Virus record (IMG/VR): IMGVR_UViG_3300037470_000577
Coordinates: 15,291 to 79,290 of that record
Source: a virus
Taxonomy: Duplodnaviria; Caudoviricetes
Direction: 5' to 3' (one strand)
Length of the DNA: 64,000 bases
Both the position numbers and the translations under genes were made by a program. The notes under the pieces were generated by a model. That model searched no databases. It had not been told where the DNA came from and saw only the letters and a program-made list of their open reading frames with translations. This document shows, piece by piece, positions 1,420 to 63,110 of this stretch; position 1 is the first letter of the stretch, and each line of letters begins with the position of its first letter.

Positions 1420-1631
1420 TGTATGCCGAACTCGATGCCCTCTTCACTCCGCGTGAACTTTCTGACATCGCTGAGCGGGAAGCCTGTCACCTGCTGCGCC
1501 TCCAACACGAAGCCGCACTATACCGCCTAGACATCTGCCACTCGCTGCTGGATGAGGCCGGGATAGAAACTGGCCCCGACATCACACAGCGGGTAGCAAC
1601 GTTGGTGGGCCGCTACCTGGCGGCCCTCTAA
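1419..1631 (+). CDS. hypothetical protein (MYAELDALFTPREL...)
   Basis: TGATG coupling to upstream gene; contains a polar motif copy. Confidence 0.6.
   Translation: MYAELDALFTPRELSDIAEREACHLLRLQHEAALYRLDICHSLLDEAGIETGPDITQRVATLVGRYLAAL
1443..1457 (+). repeat. dispersed TTCAC-N5-GTGAA motif copy 1 (TTCACTCCGCGTGAA)
   Basis: 1 mismatch to core TTCACGCCGCGTGAA. Confidence 0.75.
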
Positions 1632-1813
1632 ACAGGCTAGAATTAAGCCGTAGTAAGCCGTACAGTCGGAACGCTTGCATTATGCGAGAAAATAACCAAA
1701 CGCCCCACAGCGGGCAAATTTAGTGAAGAAGAAAAGTTACAGCAAATTCCCGCACTTGTATGCGACGAGTTATCTGATACTGACCTCAATAATGCTGTTA
1801 TAGGAGAATAACA

Positions 1814-2005
1814 ATGAACACCGATGATCTTATGGAAAAGGCAAGGCAGTACATAATGGGAAGCAGGGGGGTAGGATACTATCCTGACCGGGCGCAGATT
1901 TTCGCCCTACTTGCCATTGCCAACGAACTCAAGCGAGCCAACGACATAGAGACGGCCTTATTTGAGTACAAGAACAATCACAAACTCCCAACTAAAAGGT
2001 ACTAA
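1814..2005 (+). CDS. hypothetical protein
   Basis: AGGAG SD; operon-like packing. Confidence 0.6.
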   Translation: MNTDDLMEKARQYIMGSRGVGYYPDRAQIFALLAIANELKRANDIETALFEYKNNHKLPTKRY

Positions 2006-2007
2006 CA

Positions 2008-2496
2008 ATGTTAACCATAGAGAGAACAAACAAGGGCTTACTGGTAGCCAACGGCCAGCCCTTAGCCTTCTTCGATACCGAGGAAGAGGCGGAGGCGGCG
2101 CTGCTCTGGCGGGGAACGTTGGTGCAGGCTGCGGCCCATCGCGTCTATCTGATTCACAGCGATAAGAAGATAGGTCGGGAGCAGACCGATACCGAGCGGG
2201 AGGAGAATGGTCACGGCCCAAGAGTGAGGCGATACGATGGCCCCCACGCTTCTCACTACGTCGGGTATACAACTGGCGATGTGGACGGGCGGCTGGAGAA
2301 GCATCTCAGAGGCTATGGCTGCCCCTACACCCGTCTCTTGTTGCAGGGCGGCGGCTACCTGGTGCGGGTCTGGTTTGCCGGATACCTGTTCGAGAATTAC
2401 TTGAAGAATAGTTACAAGAAAACGCCCAACCTCTGCCCGGTCTGTAATCCGGCAGCGGCGGGCTATTTACCCTACCCAGGAGAGATATTAGCATGA
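2008..2496 (+). CDS. GIY-YIG superfamily nuclease-like protein
   Basis: HYVGYTTGDVDGRLEKHLRGYG..YT matches YVGxT..L.RL.xH..G.G pattern; later Glu (FENYLK) and C-terminal CPxC. Confidence 0.7.
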   Translation: MLTIERTNKGLLVANGQPLAFFDTEEEAEAALLWRGTLVQAAAHRVYLIHSDKKIGREQTDTEREENGHGPRVRRYDGPHASHYVGYTTGDVDGRLEKHLRGYGCPYTRLLLQGGGYLVRVWFAGYLFENYLKNSYKKTPNLCPVCNPAAAGYLPYPGEILA

Positions 2497-2786
2497 AAAT
2501 TGAATTGAGTGGCATTGAGTTTGTTCGTTCCCCGGTTCGGGATGCTTTGTTCGATCCATTCTTCGGCGGTTGGTACGACCTCGTTGAACCTGTGCCGTGC
2601 GTGATTAAGGGCGAGTTAGATGTGGGAGGCCGGTCGTTTCTCAATCAGCCAGCCCAGATTGTAGGGGTTGGTGAGCAGGATGTAATGATTGAGGTGGAAT
2701 TCGGGATGGAGCGGCCCTGGTTTGGCCCTGGCCGTTATCTCTATGCCGATATGCAGGATTTAACTCTGGAGGCAGACAATGACTAA
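2493..2786 (+). CDS. uncharacterised paralog family member A (VEPVPC...FGP..YLYA)
   Basis: shares motifs with 3112-3390 and 3383-3847. Confidence 0.7.
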   Translation: MKIELSGIEFVRSPVRDALFDPFFGGWYDLVEPVPCVIKGELDVGGRSFLNQPAQIVGVGEQDVMIEVEFGMERPWFGPGRYLYADMQDLTLEADND

Positions 2787-3078
2787 CCACACCCCCGGAA
2801 ACTGGTATGAGTTTATTGATAAGGTGGGTGATGTCTATGTCTTGGCCGGTGATGCCAAGCCGGGCGAACACCACGCCTATTACATCGGTAACATGGAAGA
2901 TACCTGCGGCGAGTGTCACGCCAACGCCGACCTCATGGCGGCCGGGCCTGATTTGCTGGAGGCTTGTGCAGCATTTATAGAGGCGTGGGAGAAGTCCCTG
3001 CAATTAGAAAAGACTGATGTGGCCCTGCGTTTAGCTCGCGCCGCTATTGCTAAAGCAAAAGGAGAAACAGATGATTAG
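2779..3078 (+). CDS. conserved phage hypothetical protein (HTPGxW...ANAxLxAAxPDLLEA type)
   Basis: MTNHTPGNW and HANADLMAAGPDLLEAC typical of a widespread small phage protein type. Confidence 0.75.
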   Translation: MTNHTPGNWYEFIDKVGDVYVLAGDAKPGEHHAYYIGNMEDTCGECHANADLMAAGPDLLEACAAFIEAWEKSLQLEKTDVALRLARAAIAKAKGETDD

Positions 3079-3083
3079 TAAAA

Positions 3084-3100
3084 CCTTCACACCGCGTGAA
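3084..3100 (+). repeat. dispersed motif copy 2 (CCTTCACACCGCGTGAA), intergenic before SD
   Basis: 1 mismatch to the 17-mer; preceded by AAA, followed by AAAGGAG. Confidence 0.85.
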
Positions 3101-3111
3101 AAAGGAGACAT

Positions 3112-3390
3112 ATGATGTTTAAGAAAACAGGTGAAATTATTAGAGATGTAATGGGAGTTTACGAGCGCGTTGAACCGGTTCCGTGTCGGTTCATATACAG
3201 AGATGCCAGATACAGCAAAATTATTGGTCAGATGGTCAACATCATATCCGTTGGCAAGCGCGACCAAGTAGTTCTGGATATTGGCGGCGACAAGTCGGGT
3301 TGGGCGGACGAGAACTTTGGCCCCAACTACTATCTGTACGCCCTGAACAACGGCAACTGGTTTGAATTGATGGAGGAGGAAAATGTTTAG
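3112..3390 (+). CDS. uncharacterised paralog family member B
   Basis: YERVEPVPC...GWADENFGPNYYLYA. Confidence 0.7.
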   Translation: MMFKKTGEIIRDVMGVYERVEPVPCRFIYRDARYSKIIGQMVNIISVGKRDQVVLDIGGDKSGWADENFGPNYYLYALNNGNWFELMEEENV

Positions 3391-3847
3391 GAAAACGGGA
3401 AAGAAAGTTGTGGATGGGAGGAACGTATTCGAGATGGTCGAGCCGGTAAGCTGTGTTATTACCGGAAAAATCGACACCCTTTCTAATAGTAGTGTAGGAA
3501 CGCGAGCCACCGTCATTGCAGTCAGGAACGATTTTCATCTCGTCATCGAAACTGTGTTCGGCTGGGATGATGACAATTTCGGCCCCAACAAGTATCTCTA
3601 CGCCACGACAGACAAGGTAGAAATAGAGTGGCCGGAGCCGGAAACGTTCAACGGCTACTCCGAAGCCTTTGCTATCGGGCAGGCCATGAGAACCTATGGC
3701 GGTTCATTCGTCAGCCACCTGGGTCAGGCTCTGCAATATGCCGACAGCGAGAACCAGGCCAAAATCAGGACAACGTGGCCGGAGTACTGGCAGCGGTATC
3801 TTGAGATGGCTCGCAAGATGGAGATGTTTCAGGAGGCATCAAAGTAA
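3383..3847 (+). CDS. paralog family member C fused to a small helical phage domain (GGSFVSHLGQALQYADSEN)
   Basis: N-half FEMVEPVSC...GWDDDNFGPNKYLYA; C-half resembles a common GGSF..LG.A...AD..N phage peptide. Confidence 0.7.
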   Translation: MFRKTGKKVVDGRNVFEMVEPVSCVITGKIDTLSNSSVGTRATVIAVRNDFHLVIETVFGWDDDNFGPNKYLYATTDKVEIEWPEPETFNGYSEAFAIGQAMRTYGGSFVSHLGQALQYADSENQAKIRTTWPEYWQRYLEMARKMEMFQEASK

Positions 3848-4080
3848 TGGACAAGAAACATTGTATCGGTTGCAGGGATGATTACTACAATCACGACAAC
3901 CGCTCTACTACAGGCGAGTGTTGGCGACTAAGGGATGCCAGACTCGTTACTAAATATGCCATCGGTTGGTGGACGCCGATGGATGACGCCGATAACTTTA
4001 CAAAAATACAGAAGCCCTCTTGTTACCATCAGCCTGGAACGATGGCTTACTTGGACGAGATGCCGGGGCATTTACAATGA
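3847..4080 (+). CDS. small Cys-containing hypothetical protein
   Basis: coupled start and stop. Confidence 0.65.
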   Translation: MDKKHCIGCRDDYYNHDNRSTTGECWRLRDARLVTKYAIGWWTPMDDADNFTKIQKPSCYHQPGTMAYLDEMPGHLQ

Positions 4081-4532
4081 AACTCCGAACCGGTAACATG
4101 TGGTCGGCGTATGACGAGGCCGACCTCTTCCTCATTACAACCAACTCCACCATCGCCAACGGACGGCTGGTGATGGGGGCTGGGATAGCGCGAGAGGCGC
4201 GGGACAGATTTCCCGGCCTAGACAAGGCGATGGCCGACATCCTCATGCCCTGGTGCGGACACCTGGGAAGCTATTACCTGCTCATCTCAAGGGAGTGGCC
4301 CGCCAGGAAGTTAGGCGGTTTCCAGACCAAGACCAACTGCCAGCTACCGGCCAACATCACGCTCATCCGAAACGCCACCAGAGGGCTGTTGTGGTGGGCC
4401 ACCTATCACCCGGACAAGCAGGTGCATCTCAATTTCCCCGGCATAGGCAGCGGTGGCCTGTCCTCCCACGTTGTCATGCCCTATATCACACAACTGCCGG
4501 ACAATGTGACTATCTGGCAGAAGGAGAACTGA
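4077..4532 (+). CDS. macro-domain (ADP-ribose-binding/Appr-1-p processing-like) protein
   Basis: GNMW, TTN...VMGAGIA, FQTK and PGIGSGGL motifs; ATG 4077 overlaps upstream TGA. Confidence 0.8.
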   Translation: MKLRTGNMWSAYDEADLFLITTNSTIANGRLVMGAGIAREARDRFPGLDKAMADILMPWCGHLGSYYLLISREWPARKLGGFQTKTNCQLPANITLIRNATRGLLWWATYHPDKQVHLNFPGIGSGGLSSHVVMPYITQLPDNVTIWQKEN

Positions 4533-4789
4533 TGAACAAATACCTGGCTGTCCTGGAAATATTAAACCATCCTGCCGGATATTATCTCGTCGAGAACGCG
4601 GCTGACGAGAAGGACGCAGTAGAGCAAGCGTGGAAGGTGATTGATAGAGAAGCGTACCTGCTGCCTGGGCGGGATTGGGACGAGCGTTGGAGTGCAACAT
4701 GGCAAGTAACCGCCCACCCCATGTATCAGCACAGTGTAGCGGGTGTGAGTAGTGATTTGAAGGAGTGGGAATATGAGCAAGAAACTTAA
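4532..4789 (+). CDS. hypothetical protein (3' part of track ORF 4253-4789)
   Basis: TGATG coupling with AAGGAG SD. Confidence 0.6.
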   Translation: MNKYLAVLEILNHPAGYYLVENAADEKDAVEQAWKVIDREAYLLPGRDWDERWSATWQVTAHPMYQHSVAGVSSDLKEWEYEQET

Positions 4790-4970
4790 CAGAGAGACGA
4801 ATAAGAACTTAACCTTCGACCGATGGATGAAGCGTGTCGAGACTTATGCTGGAGAGGCGAGTGGTAAACCGCTCAGACGCTTCCATATTTACAATGATGT
4901 CGGTTACAGAAACGCATACAAGAAGGGACAGCGGGCCTACGATGTTGCCTTGAAAGCCTGCGGCCAGTGA
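4773..4970 (+). CDS. hypothetical protein
   Basis: SD, overlapping start. Confidence 0.6.
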   Translation: MSKKLNRETNKNLTFDRWMKRVETYAGEASGKPLRRFHIYNDVGYRNAYKKGQRAYDVALKACGQ

Positions 4971-4981
4971 CTTAAAGGAGT

Positions 4982-5506
4982 TTGAATATGAACAAGGGTG
5001 AAACTTATTTCATTGTGGAATTGCAAGGGTTGTTCTATCCGAGAGGTTTCCAATTACACGAAGATGAACTATCCAATTTCCATCTGTTTGACCACAAGAA
5101 ATTATATTGGGACGAGCAGTTGGAAATGCAAATAGTAGATGACGACTACGCCGTTGGAATAGACTTATACCCTAAAGGAAACTCCATCCAGGATGGGCAT
5201 GTCAACAGCCTTGACCGTGAGATGCACCAGGCTGGCCTGGACTCTGTTAGGGACATTGAAGAGATGGAGCGGCCCCTGTTTGATATTATGTATAAGCGGC
5301 GGGCTGAGTTGGAGTGCGATACTTTTAACGCCCGCGTTAAAGGGAAGTTCGGCCCTGCTTTCACGCCCTATCTCAGCGTGCTGATGATTTGGAGTTACCA
5401 CTGGAGCGAAGATTCCTGGGGAGAACTTGACACCTGGTTTGAATATCACGACCTGTTGACCAACAAAGTGATTGACATGCTCGGAAGGATGAGACTGCAC
5501 AAATGA
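4982..5506 (+). CDS. hypothetical protein
   Basis: AAGGAG SD; start TTG 4982 or ATG 4988. Confidence 0.65.
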   Translation: MNMNKGETYFIVELQGLFYPRGFQLHEDELSNFHLFDHKKLYWDEQLEMQIVDDDYAVGIDLYPKGNSIQDGHVNSLDREMHQAGLDSVRDIEEMERPLFDIMYKRRAELECDTFNARVKGKFGPAFTPYLSVLMIWSYHWSEDSWGELDTWFEYHDLLTNKVIDMLGRMRLHK

Positions 5507-5703
5507 AGAAACACTTTAATTACGAGACGTGGCTGGAGCAGGTAGAGGCGCTACTGGAGGAGATTTACGAACTCGACGACATGGATTCAGTAGACTTCTA
5601 TGCCTATTATACCACTGACTACGACGCTGCTGTGGCGGCGGGGCAGATTTACCAGGAAGCGATGAGAAAAAGAGAGGATGACGATGCCCGAAATAAGATT
5701 TGA
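5503..5703 (+). CDS. small acidic hypothetical protein
   Basis: ATGA overlap with upstream gene. Confidence 0.6.
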   Translation: MKKHFNYETWLEQVEALLEEIYELDDMDSVDFYAYYTTDYDAAVAAGQIYQEAMRKREDDDARNKI

Positions 5704-6547
5704 AAGTCGAGGGATGGTGGTGGATACCGGCTACAACGAAGCCTATCAGACATGGTTCAAGCGTTCCATCCCACCCAAAGATAGAGATTGGAACGGCAAG
5801 CCCAGCTACGCAGGCCAACCCTGGTTTTCTCGCTCTTGCTGGACGGTAAACGCGAAACATTTCCAGCTTATCCGCGCTAAACTAAATGAGATATATGGCT
5901 ACTGCGACGTGGTTGGAAGCCCAGCGCAAGCAAGGCAAAACGAAACCGTCACCTTCGTCCTGGATTACATCGGCAATCTCAAAGAGAAAGAGGCGGGCCA
6001 GCCGCTCTCCTTTGCCGTGCGAGACGGAAACCGGGAAGATTGGAACGTTATCTTTCCCCAGGATGTTCTGGAGAAGTGGTTTGGATTTACCCTGTCGTCC
6101 CCGGTTCTGGCAGGCAGCTATTACACCGTCCTGTCTATCGCTCAGGGTGCGGCTGGCAGCGACATCAAGCGAGCCTACCGGCAGGCGGCGCGGACATATC
6201 ATCCTGACTACAACAAAGACTCAGACGCCAATCAGCAATTCATCAAGGTACAGGAAGCTTACGAAACACTATCCAATCCCCTGCTTCGCAAGAAGTACGA
6301 TGCGGCCCTGTCCTGGAAGGAAGAGGCGGGTATCAAGGAGGATAAAGAGTACGGCGTCTTATGGCGGCCGCCCGTTCGATGTGGTCTGATGAAAGCCAAG
6401 ATAGAACATGCAGCCGGTCGGTGGATCATTAACGAAGTATTAGCGTGGCAGGATCAGGTCAACGTATCTGGCTACGTTCGAGTAACATATTGGGACATTC
6501 ATGCTGGAGGTGACTTCGGCACATGGGCTGAGAAGTGGCAGCCATAG
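5678..6547 (+). CDS. J-domain (DnaJ-like) protein with unrelated N- and C-terminal domains
   Basis: YYTVLSI...[19 protein letters not shown]...[19 protein letters not shown] with intact HPD. Confidence 0.9.
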
Positions 6548-6561
6548 TAAAGGAGAATGAA

Positions 6562-7122
6562 ATGAACTGGGAATCAACCCGACAAAGACTTATTGAATGT
6601 GGCATTGACAACCTACCAGAAGAGTGGGAGCAGCGAATTGACCTGAGCGAGGCTAACCTGAGAAGGGCTAACCTGAGAGGGGCTGACCTGAGCGAGGCTT
6701 ACCTGAGAGGGGCTAACCTGAGAGGGGCTTACCTGAGAAGGGCTAACCTGAGAGGGGCTTACCTGAGCGAGGCTAACCTGAGAAGGGCTGACCTGAGCGA
6801 GGCTAACCTGAGAAGGGCTTACCTGCCAACATCTATTAAGGTCAAGAACCTGGATGCCCGCATCCTGGAAATCCTTGAAAGTGGAGAGGGCCAAATAGAT
6901 ATGTCAAGTTGGCACACTTGCGAAACAACCCATTGCCGTGCGGGGTGGGCAATTATGCTGGCCGGGGAAGCTGGGCGAGTCTTAGAGGATATTTACGGCC
7001 CCTCGGCTGCCGGGGCAATTATTTACGCCAGTAGTTATCCCGATCTGCCTATCCCCGATTTTGTTGCGAGCGACGAGGATGCACTGGCCGATATGAGAGA
7101 ACGGGCGGCTCTCGACCAATAA
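6562..7122 (+). CDS. pentapeptide repeat protein
   Basis: about 12 A[DNY]L[RS][EGR] units (15-bp DNA repeats around 6643-6825); C-terminal [12 protein letters not shown] domain. Confidence 0.92.
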
Positions 7123-7139
7123 CCACAAGGAGAACGAAT

Positions 7140-7742
7140 ATGAGGAAGTCACGCGCCTTAACCAGAACCAACTACACCGTCGCCGAGGGCAGCATAAAAG
7201 ATGTGGCCCAACGTGAAAACATTTCAATCGAGCAGGCATTTATGAATGCCGAGTACATCGCTCTGGTTGACGTGTCGGGCAGCATGACTGCTACCGACAG
7301 CCGGGGCGGGCAGTCGCGGCATGATGTGGCTGAGGAGGAGTTAAAGAAACTTCAAGCCAAGTATCCAGGCAAGCTGGCCTTAGTCTGCTTTTCATCTGAG
7401 ACGAAGTTCGTTCCGTCTGGAATACCAGATAGAATGAACGGCGGAACCAATCTACTGCGCGGCCTAGAAACCATTCAGGCCGTTGACGGCGCGGTCAAAC
7501 TATTCTTCGTAATATGCGACGGCCAGCCAGATTGGGGACAGGAGGATGAATGTATGGCTCTGGCCCGTCACTTCACAACGCCCGTCAACAGCATCTTCGT
7601 TGGCCCCGAAACCGACAGTGATGCCATGTCCTTCATGCGCCGGTTGGCCGAAGCGGGGAATGGGCAGAACGTTAATGCCAGCGAGATTGGGAAGCTAGCT
7701 GAACCATTTGAGATAATATTGCTAGAAGCGGGAGAAAAATAA
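7140..7742 (+). CDS. von Willebrand factor A (vWA) domain protein
   Basis: MIDAS DVSGSM, GGTN, ICDGQPD. Confidence 0.88.
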   Translation: MRKSRALTRTNYTVAEGSIKDVAQRENISIEQAFMNAEYIALVDVSGSMTATDSRGGQSRHDVAEEELKKLQAKYPGKLALVCFSSETKFVPSGIPDRMNGGTNLLRGLETIQAVDGAVKLFFVICDGQPDWGQEDECMALARHFTTPVNSIFVGPETDSDAMSFMRRLAEAGNGQNVNASEIGKLAEPFEIILLEAGEK

Positions 7743-7743
7743 T

Positions 7744-8736
7744 ATGGCAGACAAAGAGTATAACAAGCTAGAAGTGCCAGCGACATTCAATCCGGCCCAA
7801 CCCAAGTTCATCCAGGTTAAATTCAAATTTGATATGCCAAAGGAATTTGATAAGGGAACCTACACATCCTATCTCTACGGTGTGGAGGATGAGAACAACC
7901 AGGATGCCAGTCTGTGGGCCTACTCCGGTCTAAAGAATGCGTTGGAGCATCTGGTCGGAATAGACGATGACGAGAACGGCGTACCAAAGACAGCCTATCG
8001 GGTTACACAGGGAACCATTGCCAAGTTGATGTGTTTCCAAACCGATCCCAATGACACCAAGTCACGCCGTTACAGCGCCATCCACATTGCTGGGCCGTAC
8101 AAAGAAACTTACTCAGCCCAACCAGCCGCCAGTAATGGCGCTGCGCCAGCCCCCCAACAAAGTAAAGGAGAACAACAACCCATGATTGATAAACAAGCGG
8201 CAAGAGATAGTAAGTTCTATAAGCCTATGACGGATGCCCAAATGCTTGTTGCTACCGGGCTTATTAACGACCGAGGCAACACCTTGTTGGTTGCCTGGCG
8301 TTTTATAACGACCAACTTTCCCGATCTAGCACAGGAGAATCAGCGGGCAATGGCAATTCACCTGAACATGGAAGTAGCGACCAACCTCTGGCGTTACGAT
8401 GGGCCGTATGAGGAGCCGGAACCCGATCCAACCAAAGCTCTGGCAACCGACCCGATATACCAACGGCTTGAGAAGGTGACAAAGATGCCGGAACTATCCG
8501 CCCGTATCCAGGAATACTTTACCATCCTGGTTGAGGAGACTTCATCTGAAAACGAGTTCTCCGTCAAAGGCGCTTTCAAGAAGATGGGCATTAACACCAT
8601 CCCCAACAAAGCTCTCTTTGCCCCTAGTATGTATGCCGATTTCAAGAAGCTGGAACGTTACCGACAGTATCGTGACCAGGGCTTTGAACCCGATGCTGCG
8701 GCCGAAGCGGTTGTTGCTGAGAGTGAAACCGCGTGA
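7744..8736 (+). CDS. hypothetical protein, possibly ssDNA-binding/recombination
   Basis: 330 aa; beta-rich N-domain, Ala/Pro/Gln linker, acidic C-terminus; function inferred from position only. Confidence 0.5.
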   Translation: MADKEYNKLEVPATFNPAQPKFIQVKFKFDMPKEFDKGTYTSYLYGVEDENNQDASLWAYSGLKNALEHLVGIDDDENGVPKTAYRVTQGTIAKLMCFQTDPNDTKSRRYSAIHIAGPYKETYSAQPAASNGAAPAPQQSKGEQQPMIDKQAARDSKFYKPMTDAQMLVATGLINDRGNTLLVAWRFITTNFPDLAQENQRAMAIHLNMEVATNLWRYDGPYEEPEPDPTKALATDPIYQRLEKVTKMPELSARIQEYFTILVEETSSENEFSVKGAFKKMGINTIPNKALFAPSMYADFKKLERYRQYRDQGFEPDAAAEAVVAESETA

Positions 8737-9269
8737 CCAACGACCTTGTAACGAGCGGGAGGGCTTGCATCACGGCCACTGGTGCAACCTTCCTGCCTGG
8801 TATTCCCTATGAAAATATGGAAGGTTTTATCGTCGAGATGTGCCGGGTCAGGCGGGGAGTGACGGCCGCTATTGGCGACGCCTTGAACTACGCCGAACGA
8901 GAGTACGGTGAAACCTATGCCCAACTAGAGGCGTCAACCGGTTACAGTCCAGGTTACCTGGCTAACCTGAAATGGGTGTTCGGTTCTGTTCCTATCGAGA
9001 ATCGCATCGACGGCCTGGGCATGTCCTACTACCAGGTTGTGGCCCCGATTACCGACATGATTGTGCAGCGTACCTGGCTGGAAACGGCCTGGGAAAACGG
9101 CTGGACGCGGGATGAACTTCGACTGGCGGTGAACGGCGCACCCCGCGAGCGTCAGAAAACCACTGCATTACGCGATGTGGTCCAGGAATTTGTGTGGGCC
9201 TATCGCAAAGGAGACAGTATAGAAAGATGGGTAAAGGAGTTGGAGACAATGCTTTCGCACTGGAGATAG
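8733..9269 (+). CDS. putative DNA-binding protein (LmbU-like phage family)
   Basis: IGDALNY...YGETY....TGYS..YL.NLKWV...R...L..SYY pattern. Confidence 0.5.
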   Translation: MTNDLVTSGRACITATGATFLPGIPYENMEGFIVEMCRVRRGVTAAIGDALNYAEREYGETYAQLEASTGYSPGYLANLKWVFGSVPIENRIDGLGMSYYQVVAPITDMIVQRTWLETAWENGWTRDELRLAVNGAPRERQKTTALRDVVQEFVWAYRKGDSIERWVKELETMLSHWR

Positions 9270-9436
9270 GCAACTCTCTTCGAGCGGCCCAGGAGATTAC
9301 CGACGAGTTCCTGGCGGTTAGCGATTACCTGACCGCCCTGGGAGTTCCGTATGAATTTGACGACGGGACGCCGATGCTCACCTTGTTAGACAGGGTGCGC
9401 TATATGAAAGAGGAGATGCAGCATGAATCTAAATGA
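9227..9436 (+). CDS. hypothetical protein
   Basis: fills the gap between flanking genes; start uncertain. Confidence 0.45.
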   Translation: MGKGVGDNAFALEIGNSLRAAQEITDEFLAVSDYLTALGVPYEFDDGTPMLTLLDRVRYMKEEMQHESK

Positions 9437-9977
9437 TGATCAGCAAGCAGTATTGAGAACGATTATCTCTTACGCTGGCATGAACGGCGATACGCCCCGC
9501 CAGTCAACGCTCGCCGTCTTAACCGGACTCAGTAGAAATAAGGTTGAGTATGCGCTTTCCCGGTTGGGTAGGGGGGGCTACTTAGTCCGCCCGTTTCCGG
9601 GTGAGTGGAATTACCAAGTTACCCCCAAAGGAGTTGAGGCAATGAACCAGTCCCCTATCGTCCCGCCATCCCCCCTGCACAACGACAGCACCGTTGTCTG
9701 CCGTTATGAATATTGGCCCAATGCCCGGCGAGCCGAACACCATCTGATTTATACCAACGGAACCTGTTCCTGTCGTCACGTCAAACGTTGCTTCCACCTG
9801 CGGCGGGCGGCAGTTGATTTACCCGACTTGATTGAACAGTTTGAGATTGAGTTCGAGGATAACGGCAGCCATTGGTCGCAAGAAAACATCGAGCGAATGG
9901 AACGGTGGTTGTCAGAGAACTACGAAACGATTATGTCCTGGAGCAAAGTGCCAGTGCCAACGTACGATGACTTTTAA
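9423..9977 (+). CDS. winged-HTH plus SWIM-type zinc-finger protein
   Basis: QSTLAVLTGLSRNKVEYALSRL..G HTH; CSC......CFH SWIM pattern. Confidence 0.7.
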   Translation: MNLNDDQQAVLRTIISYAGMNGDTPRQSTLAVLTGLSRNKVEYALSRLGRGGYLVRPFPGEWNYQVTPKGVEAMNQSPIVPPSPLHNDSTVVCRYEYWPNARRAEHHLIYTNGTCSCRHVKRCFHLRRAAVDLPDLIEQFEIEFEDNGSHWSQENIERMERWLSENYETIMSWSKVPVPTYDDF

Positions 9978-9982
9978 GGAGA

Positions 9983-10534
9983 ATGAGGGTGAACGAACTA
10001 CGTGCAGTGAACAGACCCCTGATAGTGATGCACACCGGTTGGGTCGATGCTGACCTGACGCTGGAGGAGTTGGGCTTACGGCTATGGGTGGCCGTACATG
10101 GGCCGGTGACGGCCGAATGCATTTACGAGATGTTTCCAGACTGTCCGACCGAAATAGTCAGCAGACTGGAGCACGACCAGCCGATGGACTTAATGAGTCC
10201 GCCCAAGAAGAAGCGGCCGAAGGTTAAGGCAGAGCGCAAGAAGTCCCAGGATCAGATTGATCGTGCGGTATTGGAGAGTCACTTCTCAGAGATAACCGGC
10301 ATCGCCAAACCCGAACCCAAGACTGCCCGTCAGCGTTCTCAGGCCGTAGCATTGTGGTGGAGTCCCTTGCGCGATATCTACGAGATGACAGGCAGAGATG
10401 TTGAGGCCGCGCAAACGCTTATAACAGAGGCCGTGTGGCGTATGGCCGAACTAACTATTGCCTCTCCCAAGTCCATCGAAAAGGTCTGCATCTCCATCAA
10501 TGCAAAGGAAGGCCATGATGATCTGGTCTTTTGA
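9983..10534 (+). CDS. putative replication initiator/organiser-like protein
   Basis: Lys-rich linker and helical C-domain upstream of primase/helicase; inference. Confidence 0.4.
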   Translation: MRVNELRAVNRPLIVMHTGWVDADLTLEELGLRLWVAVHGPVTAECIYEMFPDCPTEIVSRLEHDQPMDLMSPPKKKRPKVKAERKKSQDQIDRAVLESHFSEITGIAKPEPKTARQRSQAVALWWSPLRDIYEMTGRDVEAAQTLITEAVWRMAELTIASPKSIEKVCISINAKEGHDDLVF

Positions 10535-10835
10535 TGAGGGGGTGGATTATCGGATTGGCTTTTACACCAGCTTGCTCAATCGGGCGCTGGCCCCCAACTC
10601 GCCCATCGTCCATACCGACCTAGACCATACTGCCTATCTACGCCAGGTCGCGGCAACGTTGAATAAAATTGTCGAAGCGGGCATGAACGTACAACTGGTC
10701 GAACTAGCCCAGGTTACGGGCAACGCGGACATCATGGTCGATGTTGTAGCCTGGGTAGTTGGGGCGACCAACGCTTTGGGCGGAGAGTTGGACGAGATTG
10801 AGCGGGCGATGGCGAGCATAATGGAGGAATCATGA
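10515..10835 (+). CDS. hypothetical protein
   Basis: AAGG SD, overlap with upstream gene. Confidence 0.55.
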   Translation: MMIWSFDEGVDYRIGFYTSLLNRALAPNSPIVHTDLDHTAYLRQVAATLNKIVEAGMNVQLVELAQVTGNADIMVDVVAWVVGATNALGGELDEIERAMASIMEES

Positions 10836-11065
10836 GAACAGGATACGCATTTTCAGCTAGTGGAGTAGATAGCAAGGGTTTTCTAAGAACTGTTTGGGGA
10901 GTGGTTTGTGCTATAAGTGAAGAAGAAGCGGTTGGAGTGGCAGCGGCGCGATTTAACGAAAGACATCCCCACTGCCCCATCCACACAATAGGAGCAGTCG
11001 TTGTGGATGGAGAAGGAACAAAAATTATTAACGGGAGAATGGTGCAGGTGGAGGAGGAATCATGA
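10832..11065 (+). CDS. small hypothetical protein, paralog of 11062-11307
   Basis: GY.F...G.......G...A..E..A pattern shared. Confidence 0.6.
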   Translation: MRTGYAFSASGVDSKGFLRTVWGVVCAISEEEAVGVAAARFNERHPHCPIHTIGAVVVDGEGTKIINGRMVQVEEES

Positions 11066-11307
11066 ATAAAGGTTATATTTTTTTAGTGACAGGATTAGCC
11101 AGAAACGGAAGGGACTTTGAAGTTTCTTACGGACTTTTATTTGCAGAAAACGAGACTTATGCAAAATCATTGGCTACGTCTTACTTTCACAGAAACAACC
11201 CGTCTTGCAGCAATGTAAGTGTAAAAGTTACGGAAGTAGTCCTCCCGGAGGATTCTCACGTCCGCATTTATGGCAGCACCCTTATCGCTGATACGGAGGA
11301 ATCGTGA
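11062..11307 (+). CDS. small hypothetical protein, paralog of 10832-11065
   Basis: same pattern; both end in EES with ATGA/GTGA coupling. Confidence 0.6.
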   Translation: MNKGYIFLVTGLARNGRDFEVSYGLLFAENETYAKSLATSYFHRNNPSCSNVSVKVTEVVLPEDSHVRIYGSTLIADTEES

Positions 11308-12329
11308 ACTATCATCCCAGCATTAAGAAGTGGGTGGGGCTGCCCTATTTCAAACAAGTATCGGCAACAGAATATTGTTCAGCCTGTCCGAGTTGCGGCG
11401 AGTTTGACCATGACTCCTCGTCCGGCGAGCCAGACCGCTTCCGCATCTTCCCGGAAGGAACAGGCAAGACCGGGGTAGCGAGAGCCTGGTGCAGGCGTTG
11501 TCAGCACAAAGAGTTTTCGTTTCCGACCGGATACGACAAGCGTGACCCGGCAGGGCAGGCAAGAATGGCCCAACTACATCAAGAGATGTTGGAGAAAGCC
11601 GAGGAAGAAATCCAGCGTTTGCACAAGATGATCGCCTGGCTTGCTCGTTCTCAGTTCTGGCTCTCGGCCCATGAGGGAATGAATCAGGCCCAACGACAGA
11701 CCTGGCTCAAACATGTTCCCTCATGGGCTATAGATATGCACTGTCTCGGCTTCTTCGACCACGACCTGCACGTACATGGCCCTGAATCGGATGTCTTTGT
11801 ACGGGGCGATTCCCTCTCCATCCCCTACCTGGAAGGCGGCGTCGAACCGGAACATATCCAATCGCTCCAGCTAAGGATGTTGAACCCGGACGAGGGTGGC
11901 AAGTACCGCTTCTTGCCTGGATTCAAGGGCAGTGACCGATTGTTCTTTCCCTATCCGGAACATACGCACATGGATGAAGTTGTTATCGTAGTCGAGGGAG
12001 CTAAGAAATCAATATGGCTGTTTGACGAGTTGTCGGACATTGAGTACAGGGGACAGTCGGCCACCATTGTAGCGTTGCCCAATAAGTGGCTGGAATACGC
12101 TTCCGTTGCCCGGTTCGAGGACAGTAAGGTTGTGATATGGATGCTTGACCCGGACGCCCATTGGCCGGACAAGAACGGCAATGTGACGGCCGAGATTAAC
12201 GCCAACAAGGTGGGTCGGGAAAAGAGTCGCTTTGTCCGTTTGCCGGGCAAGGTGGACGACCTTATAACAAGCGGCGTATATAAGAACAAGCATTTGAAAG
12301 CTCTAATCAATCAGGCAGGTACAGTATGA
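11304..12329 (+). CDS. DNA primase (Zn-binding domain + TOPRIM)
   Basis: CPSCG...DRF...WCRRC Zn finger; VIVVEGAKK and LDPD TOPRIM motifs. Confidence 0.85.
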   Translation: MNYHPSIKKWVGLPYFKQVSATEYCSACPSCGEFDHDSSSGEPDRFRIFPEGTGKTGVARAWCRRCQHKEFSFPTGYDKRDPAGQARMAQLHQEMLEKAEEEIQRLHKMIAWLARSQFWLSAHEGMNQAQRQTWLKHVPSWAIDMHCLGFFDHDLHVHGPESDVFVRGDSLSIPYLEGGVEPEHIQSLQLRMLNPDEGGKYRFLPGFKGSDRLFFPYPEHTHMDEVVIVVEGAKKSIWLFDELSDIEYRGQSATIVALPNKWLEYASVARFEDSKVVIWMLDPDAHWPDKNGNVTAEINANKVGREKSRFVRLPGKVDDLITSGVYKNKHLKALINQAGTV

Positions 12330-13357
12330 ACATAGATGAAAGACGCTCTGAGGCTATGAAACGCTGGGGCCATACCCCCGCCGACGCTCAGACCGCTTTG
12401 ATTCACTTTGCCGAGAAGCTGTACGGAACAACTGGTGTGTCGTCCGGCAGTAAGAACCTGGACGCCATCATGGTTCCTACCAGACCGCCCTGGATACGAA
12501 CTTGGCTTGCTGCATCAGGACACGGCAAAAGTACCCAGCTTAGGGTTATCGCCAAGACTGAGGCTCGCCGCCTGGTTGATGCCGACATTGGTGATAGGTA
12601 CGCCGCTATCCTGACTTACGAGGAGGCTATTGACAGCCAGGAGTTACACATGGTTAGTGGCAACTTCACCAAGATGGATGTCTGGTACGGTCGAGTCCCG
12701 CCTCAATTGGTAGCGGAAGCGGCAGCCGACCGGGTTCTTCTGCCCATCTACATGATCGGGAAATCCATGTACAAGGCAGAACTAACGGGCCGCAAGAACG
12801 TCTATCACCAGCCCACTATCCACGACGCCATTGATGTGATGATGCACCTGTGGACGAAAGACCAGATTCGCCCCTCGGTTATATGTATTGACTACATTCA
12901 GAAGGTTCACATCAATAAACGTGGCCTTTCCCTGGACGCCAAGACCTTGCGGATTGCCGAGGGGTTGTCAGACATCTCACAGATGGCACTGGAGATGGAG
13001 TGTGCAATCGAGATGGGTTCCCAGGCAAGAAAGGAGGTGTTGACCCGCCGCGACCCTATCCCGACCGAGATAGATAACGAGTGGTCAAACGCTATCTTCC
13101 AGGAATCGACCGAGATGGTGGCCCTGTACCGGCCCTGGGCGCACAATGAGGCCAGGAAGAAAGCCATTAAGGATGGCCGGGGTTTTGACCTGCTGCGGGA
13201 CGATGGCACAAAAAGCAACGTGCCGTTCACGCCTGACCTGGTGATTGCCAGACCGCTCAAGAACAGGCCCAGCGCCATGCCTAACACGATAGCCTACCGC
13301 ATCAGGCCGGACTCGCTGGAGGTAGTTGATTTCCCGACCCAACTTATTTTCCCATAG
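12326..13357 (+). CDS. DnaB-like (SF4) replicative helicase
   Basis: Walker A AASGHGKST, YEE, Walker B ICIDYIQ, SQ and KNR arginine-finger motifs. Confidence 0.88.
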   Translation: MNIDERRSEAMKRWGHTPADAQTALIHFAEKLYGTTGVSSGSKNLDAIMVPTRPPWIRTWLAASGHGKSTQLRVIAKTEARRLVDADIGDRYAAILTYEEAIDSQELHMVSGNFTKMDVWYGRVPPQLVAEAAADRVLLPIYMIGKSMYKAELTGRKNVYHQPTIHDAIDVMMHLWTKDQIRPSVICIDYIQKVHINKRGLSLDAKTLRIAEGLSDISQMALEMECAIEMGSQARKEVLTRRDPIPTEIDNEWSNAIFQESTEMVALYRPWAHNEARKKAIKDGRGFDLLRDDGTKSNVPFTPDLVIARPLKNRPSAMPNTIAYRIRPDSLEVVDFPTQLIFP

Positions 13358-13368
13358 GAGAACAAACA

Positions 13369-13536
13369 ATGGAACTGGTAAATACGTTATTGGAATTGTC
13401 CGAAGAAGAATCGAAAGTTGATTGGACGATATTTATTGAGAAGGCCCAGGAGTTAGCCAGGCTGGTGCGGGAGTTAGAAATCACCGCCGCCCGCTGCCCA
13501 CTGTGCCAGGGAGGATATTCACATGAAGTACATTGA
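13369..13536 (+). CDS. small hypothetical protein (55 aa, CPLC)
   Basis: read manually; AGGAG SD. Confidence 0.55.
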   Translation: MELVNTLLELSEEESKVDWTIFIEKAQELARLVRELEITAARCPLCQGGYSHEVH

Positions 13537-14962: not shown

Positions 14963-14973
14963 AGGAGAATGAC

Positions 14974-42829: not shown

Positions 42830-42834
42830 GATAT

Positions 42835-54369: not shown

Positions 54370-54386
54370 CCTTCACGCCGCGTGAA
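54370..54386 (+). repeat. dispersed motif copy 7 (exact 17-mer), intergenic
   Basis: AAACCTTCACGCCGCGTGAAC between two - strand genes. Confidence 0.9.
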
Positions 54387-59515: not shown

Positions 59516-59517
59516 GG

Positions 59518-59781
59518 TTACTCGTCCTCCATGATGGTATGAAGCGCAATAGCTACATCCTTGCTCATACCGCCATTGGTAATGGTGACCGGACTTATTC
59601 GCTTTATGTCAGGCTCGCGCCACAGCAAAACGTCCAGGTCGTGGGCCACCAGTCGAATTGTGACGCTGGCAAAACCCTTGCAGCCGTTTTGAACAAGGGC
59701 ATACTGCATCGCCGCCGCCAGGTCAAGCCAGCCCTGCTTGATATGCTCAGGTCTCTGACCGTTACTCTTCTTCGTCTGCAT
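59518..59781 (-). CDS. hypothetical protein
   Basis: GAGGAG SD before ATG 59781. Confidence 0.55.
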   Translation of the reverse strand: MQTKKSNGQRPEHIKQGWLDLAAAMQYALVQNGCKGFASVTIRLVAHDLDVLLWREPDIKRISPVTITNGGMSKDVAIALHTIMEDE

Positions 59782-61330
59782 ATGGCTCCTCGATGATGAT
59801 AGGCAGGGCGGGCGGCTTGTCGTATTGGCCTTCAAGCCATGAGAGAGCGGCTAAGGCCAGCGTGCCTTTTTCGGTGTTCTTTCGGCCTCCGGCCAATAAG
59901 ACCTGGTAGCATTCTGTTTTGCGCTCCTCTATAGCAGTTAAGATGACTCGCTCGTCATTCTGGCTGTAGAGCAGGGGGTTAGCTACGTTAGGGATTGCGA
60001 GCAGACTGGCAAGCAGCGGATCGTCTGAATAGAAGAGGGTGGCGATGGGCGTTCCATCTTCGAGCCTGCCCTCTGATAACTGCATCCGAATAAACTCTTC
60101 CCGCGACAGGTCGCCGTCAACAACCATCAACCGCCGTTCGGCTTCCACGTCCAGTACGCCGGACTTGGCATTACGCTCGCGCCGTCTGGCCCGAATGTCC
60201 TGGGAGACGGCGCGGGCCTGATCCTCTTCATCGTCCTGAAAATCGTAGACCGCCTCCAGCGCCGATGGGCAGAGTTTGGCCGATAGCTGTTCGGCCAGGT
60301 CTTGGGTAAACTCGGTCGGCAGCCTGCCGCGAGCGACCATATTGGTAATCTGGTTGCCCTCTTTCGATCCCTGCATGGGCCAGAAGTCGCGGATGTCCAT
60401 ACCCCAAATATAAGCCAGGGCATACATCGCCATAATAGTGCCGACCTCTTCGTCAAAGAGTTTGAACTCGTTGAGCTTGATTCGCAGCAAGTCACCGTCA
60501 ATGGGCAAGCCCATCGCTATTGCCATTGCGTAGCGGGTTAAGCCAAGATTGTCCATCAACTCCTTGCTCATCATCATGGCCTTGATGATGTCAGACGCTT
60601 CTCCGCCCTTGATTGCCAGAATCTCGTTGGTTGGCCTGGTTCCCATCTGTTCCATCTTGTAAACCAGTTGGTCGTTAAGTACCTGCCCGATGCGGACGCT
60701 TCGCCCCAATGCACAGCGACCAACACTCATCCGTATCTTGCGGGCCGAGGACATTTGCGAGAGGGCGATCACTCTTGAAAAGTGATAGGCCCACCGCCCG
60801 CCAAACTCTGGATCATCATAGATAATGGGATAGAGTGGGTCGCCCGTTCGCTGAACGTTCTGGCTGTCAAGATGGCGAATGCCGAGCGGCATGGAGGTAA
60901 GCGGCTTGTCCCAATCGAAGAGCGAGTTCCCCATAATGCCCAGAAACATCCCATTATCCTGACTAAGAAGATCGTAGACCGCCTTCTTGTACTCGCCCCG
61001 GAACCCCTCGCCATAACCCGACATGGTATTAACCTGGGCCACAAAGTCCTCAGCTAAATCAGCATGGGATGAAACGTTCGGTTTGCGGGGAACAAATTTC
61101 AAGGGGATGTTGACCAGCTTGGTCGAGGTGGTATAGACCAGCCCGCCAAGATGGTCATAGGAGGTAACAAGAGCGTCCAGAGCTTTATCTCGCGCCGGGG
61201 ACCACCAGGGCGGAACCGGGTCGGATATGGCCCAGAAGCCGTGTTGTAAGTGGGGGCCAAGTATCCCGGACAGGCGGGTCGCGTCGGACTTCTGCTCTAC
61301 AAGTTCTTCTAACTGGCCGTTATTAGCCAT
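59762..61330 (-). CDS. portal protein
   Basis: about 520 aa directly after terL; start re-assigned to ATG 61330. Confidence 0.8.
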   Translation of the reverse strand: MANNGQLEELVEQKSDATRLSGILGPHLQHGFWAISDPVPPWWSPARDKALDALVTSYDHLGGLVYTTSTKLVNIPLKFVPRKPNVSSHADLAEDFVAQVNTMSGYGEGFRGEYKKAVYDLLSQDNGMFLGIMGNSLFDWDKPLTSMPLGIRHLDSQNVQRTGDPLYPIIYDDPEFGGRWAYHFSRVIALSQMSSARKIRMSVGRCALGRSVRIGQVLNDQLVYKMEQMGTRPTNEILAIKGGEASDIIKAMMMSKELMDNLGLTRYAMAIAMGLPIDGDLLRIKLNEFKLFDEEVGTIMAMYALAYIWGMDIRDFWPMQGSKEGNQITNMVARGRLPTEFTQDLAEQLSAKLCPSALEAVYDFQDDEEDQARAVSQDIRARRRERNAKSGVLDVEAERRLMVVDGDLSREEFIRMQLSEGRLEDGTPIATLFYSDDPLLASLLAIPNVANPLLYSQNDERVILTAIEERKTECYQVLLAGGRKNTEKGTLALAALSWLEGQYDKPPALPIIIEEPYADEEE

Positions 61331-63110
61331 ACTTTTCAAGTTCCTTTTCGACCTTCGCGGTGGCCTGGGCAACGGCTAAGTCAATGCGCGTCATCATTTC
61401 CGCCAACCTATCTTCGCTCATTTGACCGCTGTCGTCAAGAGCGTGGACAGAAACGGGCCGGTAGCGGCCGTAGGCTTTGTTCCATATGCCGTATTTGCAG
61501 TTGTGAACCAGCACCCCGGAAGCGTAGTATTCTTCCTCCCCCTCGACTTCTATGTTATAGACCGGCTCTCTTGTTTCGTTCGCGTAAATACGCAGCACCC
61601 CTACCCCGGACAGAATATTCCCAGGAGAAAGGGAAGCAAGCGGAACAAACTCGCCGTCGCAAAAGACAGGGTGATCGGCAGTACCAACAAGCTGCTGACC
61701 GTTGGATAGTTCGACCGTATAGGTTGCGGCCATTGGACTGCTCATCCAGGCATGGGTGACGGGACGGTAGCCATTCCTGGTTAAAACCTTCACGCCGCGT
61801 GAAAGCTGTTCTATTGGCCGAGGCCCATTGTCGGTTTCCACCATTGTTCCGGCAACCAGACAGGCATTCAGAGTATGGTCATTGGCGTCCAACGGAACGC
61901 CGTTCTTATCGTAAACGTGGGCGTTCATTTCGTAACGAACGAACCGGCAGCGGGGATGGACGATGACGCGCCTGACCTTGTTGCTGTCCGGGCCAATCCA
62001 GTTATTTAACTCCTTGTTCCCTTCGGAAATCTTACATCTTATCGGATAGGCTGTGATGCCGGAGTTAATCAGGCTGCCACCCAACGAAGGCGATGCCCCA
62101 TCATAAATAGCGTAGGCCGGTTTATCGGGCCAGCCCATTCGCTTGCAGTAGTCCCGCACTTTTGCAATGTGCGGCTCGGCCAGAATCTGGACATCGAGAT
62201 GTTCGCCGAAGATGGCAACCGTCCCGTCGCGCCGTTCCTGCCCCAGCAGAAAGGCTCTGGGCTGGCTCTTGGCCGTAAATAGTTTTATCTTCTCATCATA
62301 CTCCCCGGAATAACCGTCATCCACATACCAGACAAAGCGGCCGTTGTAAGGGATATACTCAGCGTCCAGGGTGACGTTGCCCTTCGCTATTCCGGGCTGG
62401 GCTGGATTGAAGTCGTCCAGCCAGGCGTCAAAGACCTGGCCCTCGCCACTGACCCATTTCCTATCGCGCAAGCGGCGACCTTTCAGCCCCCGCATATTCT
62501 CGACCCGTTCCCGGTAAGCGTCCGGCGTGGAGGGATTATCTTCGATACCAGAGTAGTAGACCGAGGCTTCGCCGCCAATAATAAGTCGTAGATTTATCCA
62601 GTGGTTTTCGGCGTCGGGGTTGGTGGTTGGGATGATCTGAGTCCAGGGGGCAGCCTTACCCCTGACACGCCCTGATATTTCCTCGTAATCATCCTCTTCG
62701 TGTTCGCTGGCCTCTTCCATCCACCAGATGTCCACCTCTCCTTTCTCGCCAAAAGAACGAATGCCGGTAGCCTCTTTGTTGCCGCCCTTCATACCAATCA
62801 GGTAGAGGGTGCTGTCCTCGTCTCCGTGATGGCTGTAGATAATCCGATCTGGTTTGGAGCGATAGTTTATATTTGGATCATCATCACAGTTGGAAATCTT
62901 TTTCATGAAGGGAATGGTCGATGTTCTGGCATCCTCATATACCTTCCGGGAAACAACGCCAGTTGCGCCAGAATAGTAGCGCATAAAGGCATCAACCTTA
63001 TTGCCCGTCACCATCGACTTGCCGCCCCCTACCCCGCCAGTCAGGAGCATGACCGGCGACTTGTCGTTAAGAGGCGCTATCTGCCAGTCGTAAGGTTCAA
63101 ACAGATTCAT
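61323..63110 (-). CDS. terL: terminase large subunit with intein
   Basis: Walker A GGVGGGKS, Walker B WWMEEA, TTNP, RNase-H-like YVDDG / IYD / NDH. Confidence 0.95.
   Translation of the reverse strand: MNLFEPYDWQIAPLNDKSPVMLLTGGVGGGKSMVTGNKVDAFMRYYSGATGVVSRKVYEDARTSTIPFMKKISNCDDDPNINYRSKPDRIIYSHHGDEDSTLYLIGMKGGNKEATGIRSFGEKGEVDIWWMEEASEHEEDDYEEISGRVRGKAAPWTQIIPTTNPDAENHWINLRLIIGGEASVYYSGIEDNPSTPDAYRERVENMRGLKGRRLRDRKWVSGEGQVFDAWLDDFNPAQPGIAKGNVTLDAEYIPYNGRFVWYVDDGYSGEYDEKIKLFTAKSQPRAFLLGQERRDGTVAIFGEHLDVQILAEPHIAKVRDYCKRMGWPDKPAYAIYDGASPSLGGSLINSGITAYPIRCKISEGNKELNNWIGPDSNKVRRVIVHPRCRFVRYEMNAHVYDKNGVPLDANDHTLNACLVAGTMVETDNGPRPIEQLSRGVKVLTRNGYRPVTHAWMSSPMAATYTVELSNGQQLVGTADHPVFCDGEFVPLASLSPGNILSGVGVLRIYANETREPVYNIEVEGEEEYYASGVLVHNCKYGIWNKAYGRYRPVSVHALDDSGQMSEDRLAEMMTRIDLAVAQATAKVEKELEKYG
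61500..61862 (-). mobile_element. mini-intein (121 aa, no homing endonuclease) in the terL nuclease domain
   Basis: starts CLVAGTMV, block B TADHP, VYNIEV, ends VHN followed by C. Confidence 0.92.
61787..61803 (+). repeat. dispersed motif copy 8 (exact 17-mer) inside the intein
   Basis: AAAACCTTCACGCCGCGTGAAA; encodes LSRGVKVL on the - strand. Confidence 0.9.

Follow-up and report, generated by a model that had tools for sequence, protein, structure and literature searches.

A dispersed, dyad-symmetric DNA motif in a tailed phage genome and its candidate ParB-fold reader

The stretch of DNA analysed here, referred to as the window, comprises 64,000 nucleotides (bases 15291-79290) of the 79,290-bp virus record IMGVR_UViG_3300037470_000577 (Duplodnaviria; Caudoviricetes). 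Dispersed over this phage genome is a 15-bp palindrome that is present in large excess, is kept at orthologous positions in related phages and has a centre base that flips between them. On balance, its copies probably serve as dyad-symmetric docking sites on double-stranded DNA for a dimeric, sequence-specific protein special to a small clade of phages, the best candidate being P0266, a 178-aa LmbU-family protein encoded at 8733-9269 (+) of the window. A preliminary description had presented the motif as a genome-wide polar signal for nicking, packaging, ejection or replication that is read by a protein. The genome-wide signal and its protein reader are supported by the excess, the orthologous sites and the frozen synonymous codons described below, whereas the polarity is not borne out: the motif is palindromic and its centre base flips in relatives.

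Sequence and excess of the palindrome

The 17-mer CCTTCACGCCGCGTGAA occurs exactly at 16646, 36336, 48113, 54370 and 61787 of the window, with one mismatch at 3084 and with two mismatches at 1441 (the copy previously listed as 1443). These five exact copies and the near-exact ones, including that at 25866, were thus correctly located before. The arms, TTCAC-N5-GTGAA, have nine matches in the window, the number reported earlier, against 0.04 expected from 100 shuffles, and over the whole genome arm-only matches with at most one mismatch number 11 versus ~2 in shuffles. In an unbiased scan of all 5+gap+5 palindromes of the genome, TTCAC-N5-GTGAA is the most over-represented by far. The last ~135 nt of the record (window 63866-64000) repeat its first ~135 nt, so that the genome is closed at ~79,155 bp, circular or circularly permuted, despite being classed as linear by the source. 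Over this whole genome there are 10 exact-arm sites and the one-mismatch site at window 25866; the extra forward copy beyond the window is located at genome position 12171. A degenerate reverse copy, also outside the window, is found at genome position 1380 (TTCACGCGGCGTGGG, which is CCCACGCCGCGTGAA on the - strand) and codes for LLHAAW. By eye, no reverse copy had been found in the window before; this one lies outside it.

The 15-mer is a perfect palindrome, consisting of two 7-bp arms and a single centre base, and the canonical copies all read TTCACGC-C-GCGTGAA on the + strand. The centre is a G:C pair in 13/13 canonical or near-canonical sites of three phages, and the outer flanks are roughly symmetric as well, with AA at -4/-3 and TT at +3/+4. 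Two canonical boxes are part of doublets (16630-16662 and 36320-36352), in which a weaker TTCAC-N5-GTGAA box lies 18 bp upstream. Both doublets keep the arms, the 18-bp period and a GCC linker, while the spacer of the weak box differs (AAACA vs TACTT). Since the weak boxes retain the arms but carry unrelated spacers, the arms appear to be the recognised part. At position 6, replacements of G by T or A lack a compensating partner, and in two sites the pair that closes the stem is disrupted; because these variants are uncompensated, and a hairpin would be weak anyway, recognition of the sequence rather than of a hairpin is indicated.

The motif by itself uncovers no relatives or host, because matches to the exact 17-mer are single and unrelated. 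One match was obtained in IMG/VR and at least 120 single ones in metagenomes, all unrelated and without protein similarity to the phage; in 185k species genomes at least 120 single matches are taxonomically scattered and show no similarity to the phage proteins either. The sequence of the motif gave no match in the literature.

Conservation of the sites and orientation of the centre base

Copies of the motif are present in two related phages. The contigs rel1 (29.3 kb) and rel2b (32.4 kb), which derive from the same samples and are identical where they overlap, represent one phage, of which the terminase and the capsid protein are 76% and 81% identical to those of the phage studied here. The third phage is represented by rel3 (21.5 kb), with a capsid protein that is 67% identical. 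Five exact sites and one with a single mismatch are found in rel1/rel2b, and one exact site and two with a single mismatch in rel3. The possibility of an assembly or adapter artefact, raised in the preliminary description, does not apply, because the motif recurs in these independent assemblies.

Absence from orthologous positions had been named as a second point that would speak against the motif; five orthologous site pairs were found. The sites at window 1443 and rel1 24233 both code for FTPRE just inside a small ORF, the two ORFs being otherwise barely alike. Those at window 3086 and rel1 27960 lie directly ahead of the MFKK gene, and the DNA homology between this phage and rel1 begins exactly at the motif. 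The sites at window 25866 and rel2b 365, the latter a perfect copy, are located in the tail-fibre gene, and those at window 61789 and rel3 19922, the latter with one mismatch, in the intein of the large terminase. The fifth pair, genome 12171 and rel1 16735, belongs to an early promoter with collinear flanks. The site at 36320-36352 is not present at the orthologous place in the relative. Sites are kept at orthologous places while their flanks drop to ~70% DNA identity, and where they are coding the codons do not drift: in the intein the S-R-G-V codons within the motif are identical to those of rel3 (4/4), as compared to 22/60 conserved residues sharing a codon overall, and the tail-fibre gene likewise has all of these codons in common with rel2b (4/4 vs 41/78 in the flanks). 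These frozen codons imply that the DNA sequence itself is under selection. The data support a genome-wide, selected signal, which is most simply read by a sequence-specific protein.

The break in homology ahead of the MFKK gene might also be expected if the motif were the footprint of a tiny mobile or recombination element, with copies that spread by copying and mark module junctions. The five identical 17-mers, the three genes that end in ...HAA-stop within the motif, and the presence of GIY-YIG and HNH genes nearby are compatible with such an origin. However, target duplications and a longer shared unit are both lacking, the doublets share their architecture but not their spacer, and the orthologous intein and tail-fibre sites with their in-frame codons show that coding sites evolved in place. 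Few rearrangements were likewise seen at the dispersed repeats of Cluster O mycobacteriophages (PMC4351075). This origin is considered very improbable.

Relatives below ~65% identity (L134-136, L141-144 and four IMG/VR records), including the 71-kb genome G004, contain no copy of the motif and no other dispersed palindrome. This distribution bears on the question of whether the reader could be a host protein, such as a global regulator or a nucleoid protein, instead of a phage protein. A host reader would account for the identical motif in three phages with largely different early genes; in addition, the phage-encoded reader is a candidate only, and an LmbU-like gene is also found in a motif-less relative. 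Against this, relatives at 50-65% protein identity and with a similar gene order are entirely devoid of the motif, so that a clade-specific phage factor fits better, and in scattered bacterial genomes the 17-mer is merely single. Docking of a host protein is considered improbable. Across the relatives, no gene could be established that co-occurs with the motif.

The uniform + orientation noted earlier for the window is correct: the centre is C on the + strand in all nine sites, as well as in the one-mismatch site, in both transcription arms, and CC stands to the left in 6/9 sites, while GG to the right is found in 0/9. Since the 15-mer is a perfect palindrome, nothing but the centre base and the CC flank defines this orientation. 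Furthermore, the flank TAAAACC is common to three sites, in the intein site owing to the choice among synonymous codons, and the spacing is more even than random, the largest inter-site gap being smaller than expected (P 0.009). Such features could indicate a strand-polar signal, read via the centre and the CC/A-rich flank, which either directs one-strand nicks, as in T5, phiKMV and tf-like phages, or sets the direction of replication, packaging or ejection. The closest relative shares a small HNH endonuclease with this phage, and phage tf provides a precedent with 14 one-strand nick sites across convergent transcription units (PMC3517423). Like the localized-nick motifs, which have ~4-14 copies, the motif is a short repeat on one strand regardless of transcription if this genome is viewed by itself. 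However, the known nick motifs (T5, phiKMV-like, tf/LUZ24-like) are asymmetric and strand-exclusive in every relative (PMC3517423). The present motif departs from this class in two features: it is a palindrome, which would offer a nickase equal arms on both strands, and the relatives carry both orientations.

It is evident from the related phages that the orientation is not maintained. A motif scan of relatives, as proposed in the preliminary description, confirms conservation at synonymous sites but not the orientation bias, since the exact sites of the closest relative are three C-centred and two G-centred. When oriented as in this genome, the centres are G, G, C and C in rel1 and C and C in rel2b, with a further one-mismatch site that is G-centred, and G, C and C in rel3. 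At the early promoter the centre is C at genome 12171 and G at rel1 16735. In the sulfotransferase gene, where the centre is at the wobble position of an Ala codon, rel2b and rel3 have different bases. Among the pairs with the same centre, a change of this base would alter the encoded protein at the FTPRE site, the SRGVK site of the intein and the SRGVN site of the tail fibre; only in the remaining same-centre pair (window 3086 and rel1 27960) is it not fixed by coding. The CC-flank asymmetry is not common to the relatives, which show no shared asymmetry in their flanks, and the degenerate reverse copy at genome 1380 has the opposite orientation. Within this genome, the six sites with a coding-free centre are 6:0 (two-sided P ~0.03), a bias to which the CC flank adds. 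Because the centre flips at the orthologous promoter and at the wobble position, functional polarity and T5-like nicking are not supported, and a strand-polar signal is judged improbable. We conclude from these sequence comparisons that the polarity is not a property conserved by selection; that the C-centres and CC flanks of this genome share one orientation is probably a lineage-specific accident of descent or drift.

A bolder proposal, to which we give little credence, is that the uniform polarity and near-even spacing are functional, and that the sites are directional genome-wide marks placed every ~5-14 kb, even at a cost in codon choice. A ParB-domain protein without a CTPase might then load or stop at the marks, or the marks might be nicked on a specific strand, and they might organise or process the genome in replication, packaging or ejection. 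Palindromic motifs are not known to form a system of this kind.

Genomic context of the sites

The sites occupy both coding and non-coding DNA. The site at 1443-1457 (TTCACTCCGCGTGAA) lies 24 nt inside a small + ORF, the site at 3086-3100 (TTCACACCGCGTGAA) falls in a 33-nt gap and ends 11 nt ahead of the ATG of a + gene (MMFKK...), and the doublet at 16630-16662, consisting of the weak box TTCAC-AAACA-GTGAA, GCC and a canonical box, is located in a 410-nt gap of the + arm. The one-mismatch site at 25866-25880 (TTCACGCCGCGTGAT) is part of a 1140-aa tail-fibre-like gene, where it codes for SRGVN on the - strand. The doublet at 36320-36352 has the same architecture as the first, with the weak-box spacer TACTT, and its canonical box contains the stop codon of a 1022-aa triple glycosyltransferase. 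The canonical site at 48115-48129 contains the stop codon of a 58-aa membrane ORF (47952-48128, ending in ...LLHAA-stop) and is followed by a Shine-Dalgarno sequence, while two - genes, 42 nt apart, enclose the canonical site at 54372-54386, which precedes the next start codon by 25 nt. The canonical site at 61789-61803 is inside the mini-intein of the large terminase and codes for LSRGVKV on the - strand. The sites are enriched in intergenic DNA, five of the nine being not fully coding (P 0.002). With a crude gene list, enrichment near starts is not significant (3/9 sites, P 0.13); by eye, 7/13 sites are within -25 to +40 of a start.

Two of the genes that house sites deserve a brief description. 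The ORF at 47952-48128 (+) is unannotated and has two hydrophobic helices, resembling a holin; the Shine-Dalgarno sequence behind it is strong and precedes a mini-ORF of 5 codons. The mini-intein (61500-61862, -) comprises 121 residues, 417-537 of the large terminase (gene 61323-63110), is inserted after ...DHTLNA, matches the Pfam families Hint_2 and Intein_splicing, and appears as a gap in comparison with the intein-less homologue P0002. A terminase homologue of 76% identity has no intein, and one of 61% identity contains a LAGLIDADG-containing intein at the same insertion point, for which reason the mini-intein resembles a degraded homing intein.

At several sites the motif separates a stop codon from the Shine-Dalgarno sequence that comes next. 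This position could be explained by an RNA-level element, in which a transcript hairpin with a 6-bp stem and a 3-nt loop functions in mRNA stability, processing or translational control. Sites that abut a Shine-Dalgarno sequence or contain an upstream stop codon are those at 3086, 48115, 54372 and 36338 and, in rel1, at 6982 and 27960. Moreover, both strands can fold (-4.2 to -4.4 kcal/mol with DNA parameters, z -2.2 to -3), with -9.2 to -9.4 kcal/mol for the doublets. On the other hand, the symmetry and invariance of the would-be loop C-S-G are not required for a hairpin, the broken stem-closing pairs described above are uncompensated, and conserved copies are found deep within the terminase, tail-fibre and glycosyltransferase genes. 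In addition, the U-tract that should follow the hairpin is lacking at most sites, a T7 run being present only at genome 12171, on the - strand; a terminator scan of positions 1-20000 is at background and calls none of the sites of the window, and no Rfam family matches. An RNA element is thus unlikely. As intrinsic terminators, for which a GC-rich hairpin with an immediate U-tract is required, the sites do not qualify.

At genome 12171 and rel1 16735 the motif overlaps a -35 region, with a consensus TATAAT box 11-13 nt downstream, an A-tract upstream of the motif and a ribosome-binding site further downstream. As a general rule a promoter model of palindrome plus -10 box was rejected, because it fits only these two sites and perhaps the - strand of the 36320 doublet. 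A sigma-70 promoter scan around the sites is at background, with only one weak promoter, upstream of 48115. The first ORF behind the palindrome-overlapped TATAAT promoter (L140:12241-12405, genome coordinates) encodes a 54-aa product with an HTH-looking stretch (VSRIARHLGQNGLAAVQGIAR) and without a family match. This product could autoregulate in the manner of Cro, and it is another possible reader of the motif.

The + arm of the genome carries the early and replication genes, including those for an HTH_36-SWIM protein, a primase, a DnaB-like helicase, a GIY-YIG protein, a DnaJ-domain protein and a pentapeptide protein. The - arms carry the structural genes, with a methyltransferase-sulfotransferase-glycosyltransferase cassette and the large terminase, and a short + module contains lysis-like genes. 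No isolated phage was found by megablast, tblastn against isolates reached at most 24% identity (large terminase), the large terminase found no relative in IMG/VR, and a capsid profile revealed no prophage relative in 185k species bacterial genomes. The cassette (36339-43863, -; RHH(HicB-like)-methyltransferase-sulfotransferase-GT2-triple glycosyltransferase) adjoins the capsid gene, and its order is kept in relatives down to ~40% identity (L134, L143, L144, L145, L150), which suggests that virion glycan modification is characteristic of the lineage. Genes at 19181-19741, 49397-50374 and 20566-21387 of the window encode two DUF5131 (Gp37/Gp68) proteins and a PAPS-reductase-like protein, and a C5 cytosine methyltransferase is encoded outside it (L140:3056-3727); DNA modification functions are possible on the basis of these genes. 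The pentapeptide-repeat protein (6535-7122, +; Pfam E 1e-24) derives from 15-nt tandem coding repeats, especially at 6642-6810; DNA mimicry directed at gyrase is known for proteins of this type. At 911-957, high-GC sequence surrounds a perfect AT-rich hairpin of 20 bp, the loop of which reads CCTTAAA. Finally, a cluster of AGAAC-N4-GTTCT boxes is present in a non-coding stretch of rel1 (~13116, 14109 and 14167; L132/L137 assembly), without a counterpart seen in this genome. These boxes resemble SOS (Cheo) boxes of the Gram-positive type, or may form a local operator or origin array.

Candidate reader and relation to known systems

An LmbU-like protein at 8733 was among the candidate binders listed in the preliminary description; structure prediction makes it a plausible candidate and it is now favoured. 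P0266 matches the NCBIfam profile NF038070 (LmbU) with an E-value of 1e-11 over profile positions 20-163 of 171, at 45.1 bits as compared with a curated cut-off of 125; at the sequence level it is a distant LmbU relative that stays below this cut-off. Its family has 2387 representatives, members of which weakly match DUF1016_N (9/40), HTH_ParB (2/40) and DUF3102; searches of IMG/VR with P0266 and P0267 gave no match. The AF2 model (pLDDT 90.9) has an N-terminus consisting of a short beta-hairpin and a long helix, and a ParB/Noc-type DNA-binding domain at residues 43-135. The top Foldseek matches are all ParB-family DNA-binding domains, as are the top 12 rows of the VIA structure list, and an ESM Atlas look-up points to ParB-HTH-like clusters. 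The DNA-binding domains of ParB, Noc and Spo0J superimpose on the model with VIA Z-scores of 11.9-9.7 and rmsd values of 1.9-2.7 for 89-101 residues; KorB, SopB, VirB and P1 ParB follow at Z 7-6, and unrelated rows at 5 or less. The motif arms equal the parS half-sites TTTCAC/GTGAAA. The predicted ParB/Noc fold, the LmbU likeness, the motif core CGC-C-GCG and the parS-like arms make P0266 the best, if tentative, candidate for the reader of the motif.

Characteristics of CTP-dependent ParB proteins were not detected. PF02195 (ParB_N) has no match at E<=1 in a six-frame translation of the genome, no GxxRxxA box occurs in the right context, and six-frame Pfam searches of the genome gave no ParB_N, HTH_ParB, KorB, HTH_3, phage integrase or AAA_31. 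For a ParA-type partner, the genome has no PF13614 match, other ParA families not having been searched. Because matches to the ParB_N CTPase domain, HTH_ParB/KorB and PF13614 were not found, a CTP-driven sliding clamp is not expected.

In the proposed mode of action the reader would be P0266, with its ParB/Noc-type HTH domain and without a CTP-binding domain. Each subunit of a dimer would read one TTCAC/GTGAA arm, the arm centres being 10 bp, or one helical turn, apart, and the GC-S-GC core would strengthen binding. The doublets would allow two dimers to bind side by side. A centre base that is free where coding allows is as expected for such a symmetric dimer. The bound protein would act all over the genome: at a promoter overlapped by a site (genome 12171) it would repress or activate, and at the other sites it would form a roadblock or an architectural mark.

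Several observations do not sit easily with P0266 as the reader or with a symmetric reader in general. The motif-less relative G004 (71 kb) encodes a P0266 homologue of 34% identity, the sampled contigs of the motif-bearing relatives exclude the region of a P0266 orthologue, and no site adjoins the P0266 gene. A symmetric reader does not account for the nine C-centres out of nine, the CC flanks and the even spacing, which are attributed to chance or descent. In addition, most sites have no recognisable promoter, so that a regulatory consequence of binding is no more than putative.

Several known systems resemble the motif in part. Cluster O mycobacteriophages provide the closest described counterpart, a 17-bp dyad repeat (in Corndog TGTTCGG-NNN-CCGAACA, 34 copies) that has an asymmetric centre without meaningful orientation and a predicted dimeric binder (PMC4351075). 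Common to both are invariant inverted arms, copies that are genome-wide, intergenic as well as intragenic, and positions shared by relatives. Further similarities are 5'-proximal sites, occasional site loss and occurrence in ~70-kb, apparently non-temperate siphophages (PMC4351075), and in both groups the head genes are interspersed with genes for methyltransferases and glycosyltransferases. The present phage differs in belonging to an unrelated lineage, in having ~10 instead of more than 30 copies, in its 7-bp arms around a single G:C centre, and in the uniform orientation of the centre in this one genome.

The best mechanistic analogue is KorB-OB on plasmid RK2, of which the OB core is TTTAGCGGCTAAA with a G/C centre (PMC11790492), the CTP switch being absent here. 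As in KorB-OB, ParB-parS and Noc-NBS, where palindromes of 13-16 bp are dispersed over the replicon, the sites are partly in promoters and partly remote from these or within genes, and the candidate reader is predicted to have a ParB-type HTH DNA-binding fold. Unlike these systems, it has no ParB_N CTPase domain and no HTH_ParB or KorB Pfam match; moreover, the half-sites are parted by a 5-bp GC core and are carried by a virulent-looking phage, not a plasmid. LmbU of actinomycetes is a homodimer that binds the GC-rich palindrome CGCCGGCG and has an HTH modelled on Spo0J (PMC6510168). P0266 matches the LmbU profile over nearly its full length, and the motif core CGC-C-GCG resembles CGCCGGCG. 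It differs from LmbU in being phage-encoded, in lacking the N-terminal auto-inhibitory domain of the type linked to biosynthetic gene clusters, and in its putative target, a 15-bp site with AT-containing arms.

Cluster A stoperators (L5 gp71) and the dispersed C1 operators of P1 represent one operator in many copies, largely in short intergenic gaps; these sites are asymmetric and serve prophage silencing, and stoperators are oriented with transcription. In contrast, the motif described here is palindromic and reads alike on the top strand whether it lies in a + or a - arm, and the six-frame Pfam searches found no phage integrase or HTH_3 repressor. Stoperators have likewise been contrasted with the Cluster O repeats (PMC4351075).

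Dispersed dyad repeats in lytic phages were first published for the Cluster O mycobacteriophages, with neither a reader nor a function assigned to them, and the palindrome described here is a further member of this poorly understood kind rather than a new category. The attractive T5-like reading of its polarity is corrected as probably wrong. What the present lineage adds is clear DNA-level selection on the sites, also where they fall within an intein or a tail-fibre gene, a natural experiment in which the orientation of the centre is free, and a small, expressible candidate reader with a predicted ParB DNA-binding domain that lacks the CTP switch. If P0266 reads the motif, it would provide a second documented target type for LmbU-family proteins, and ParB-fold proteins consisting of the DNA-binding domain only would run genome-wide site networks in virulent phages.

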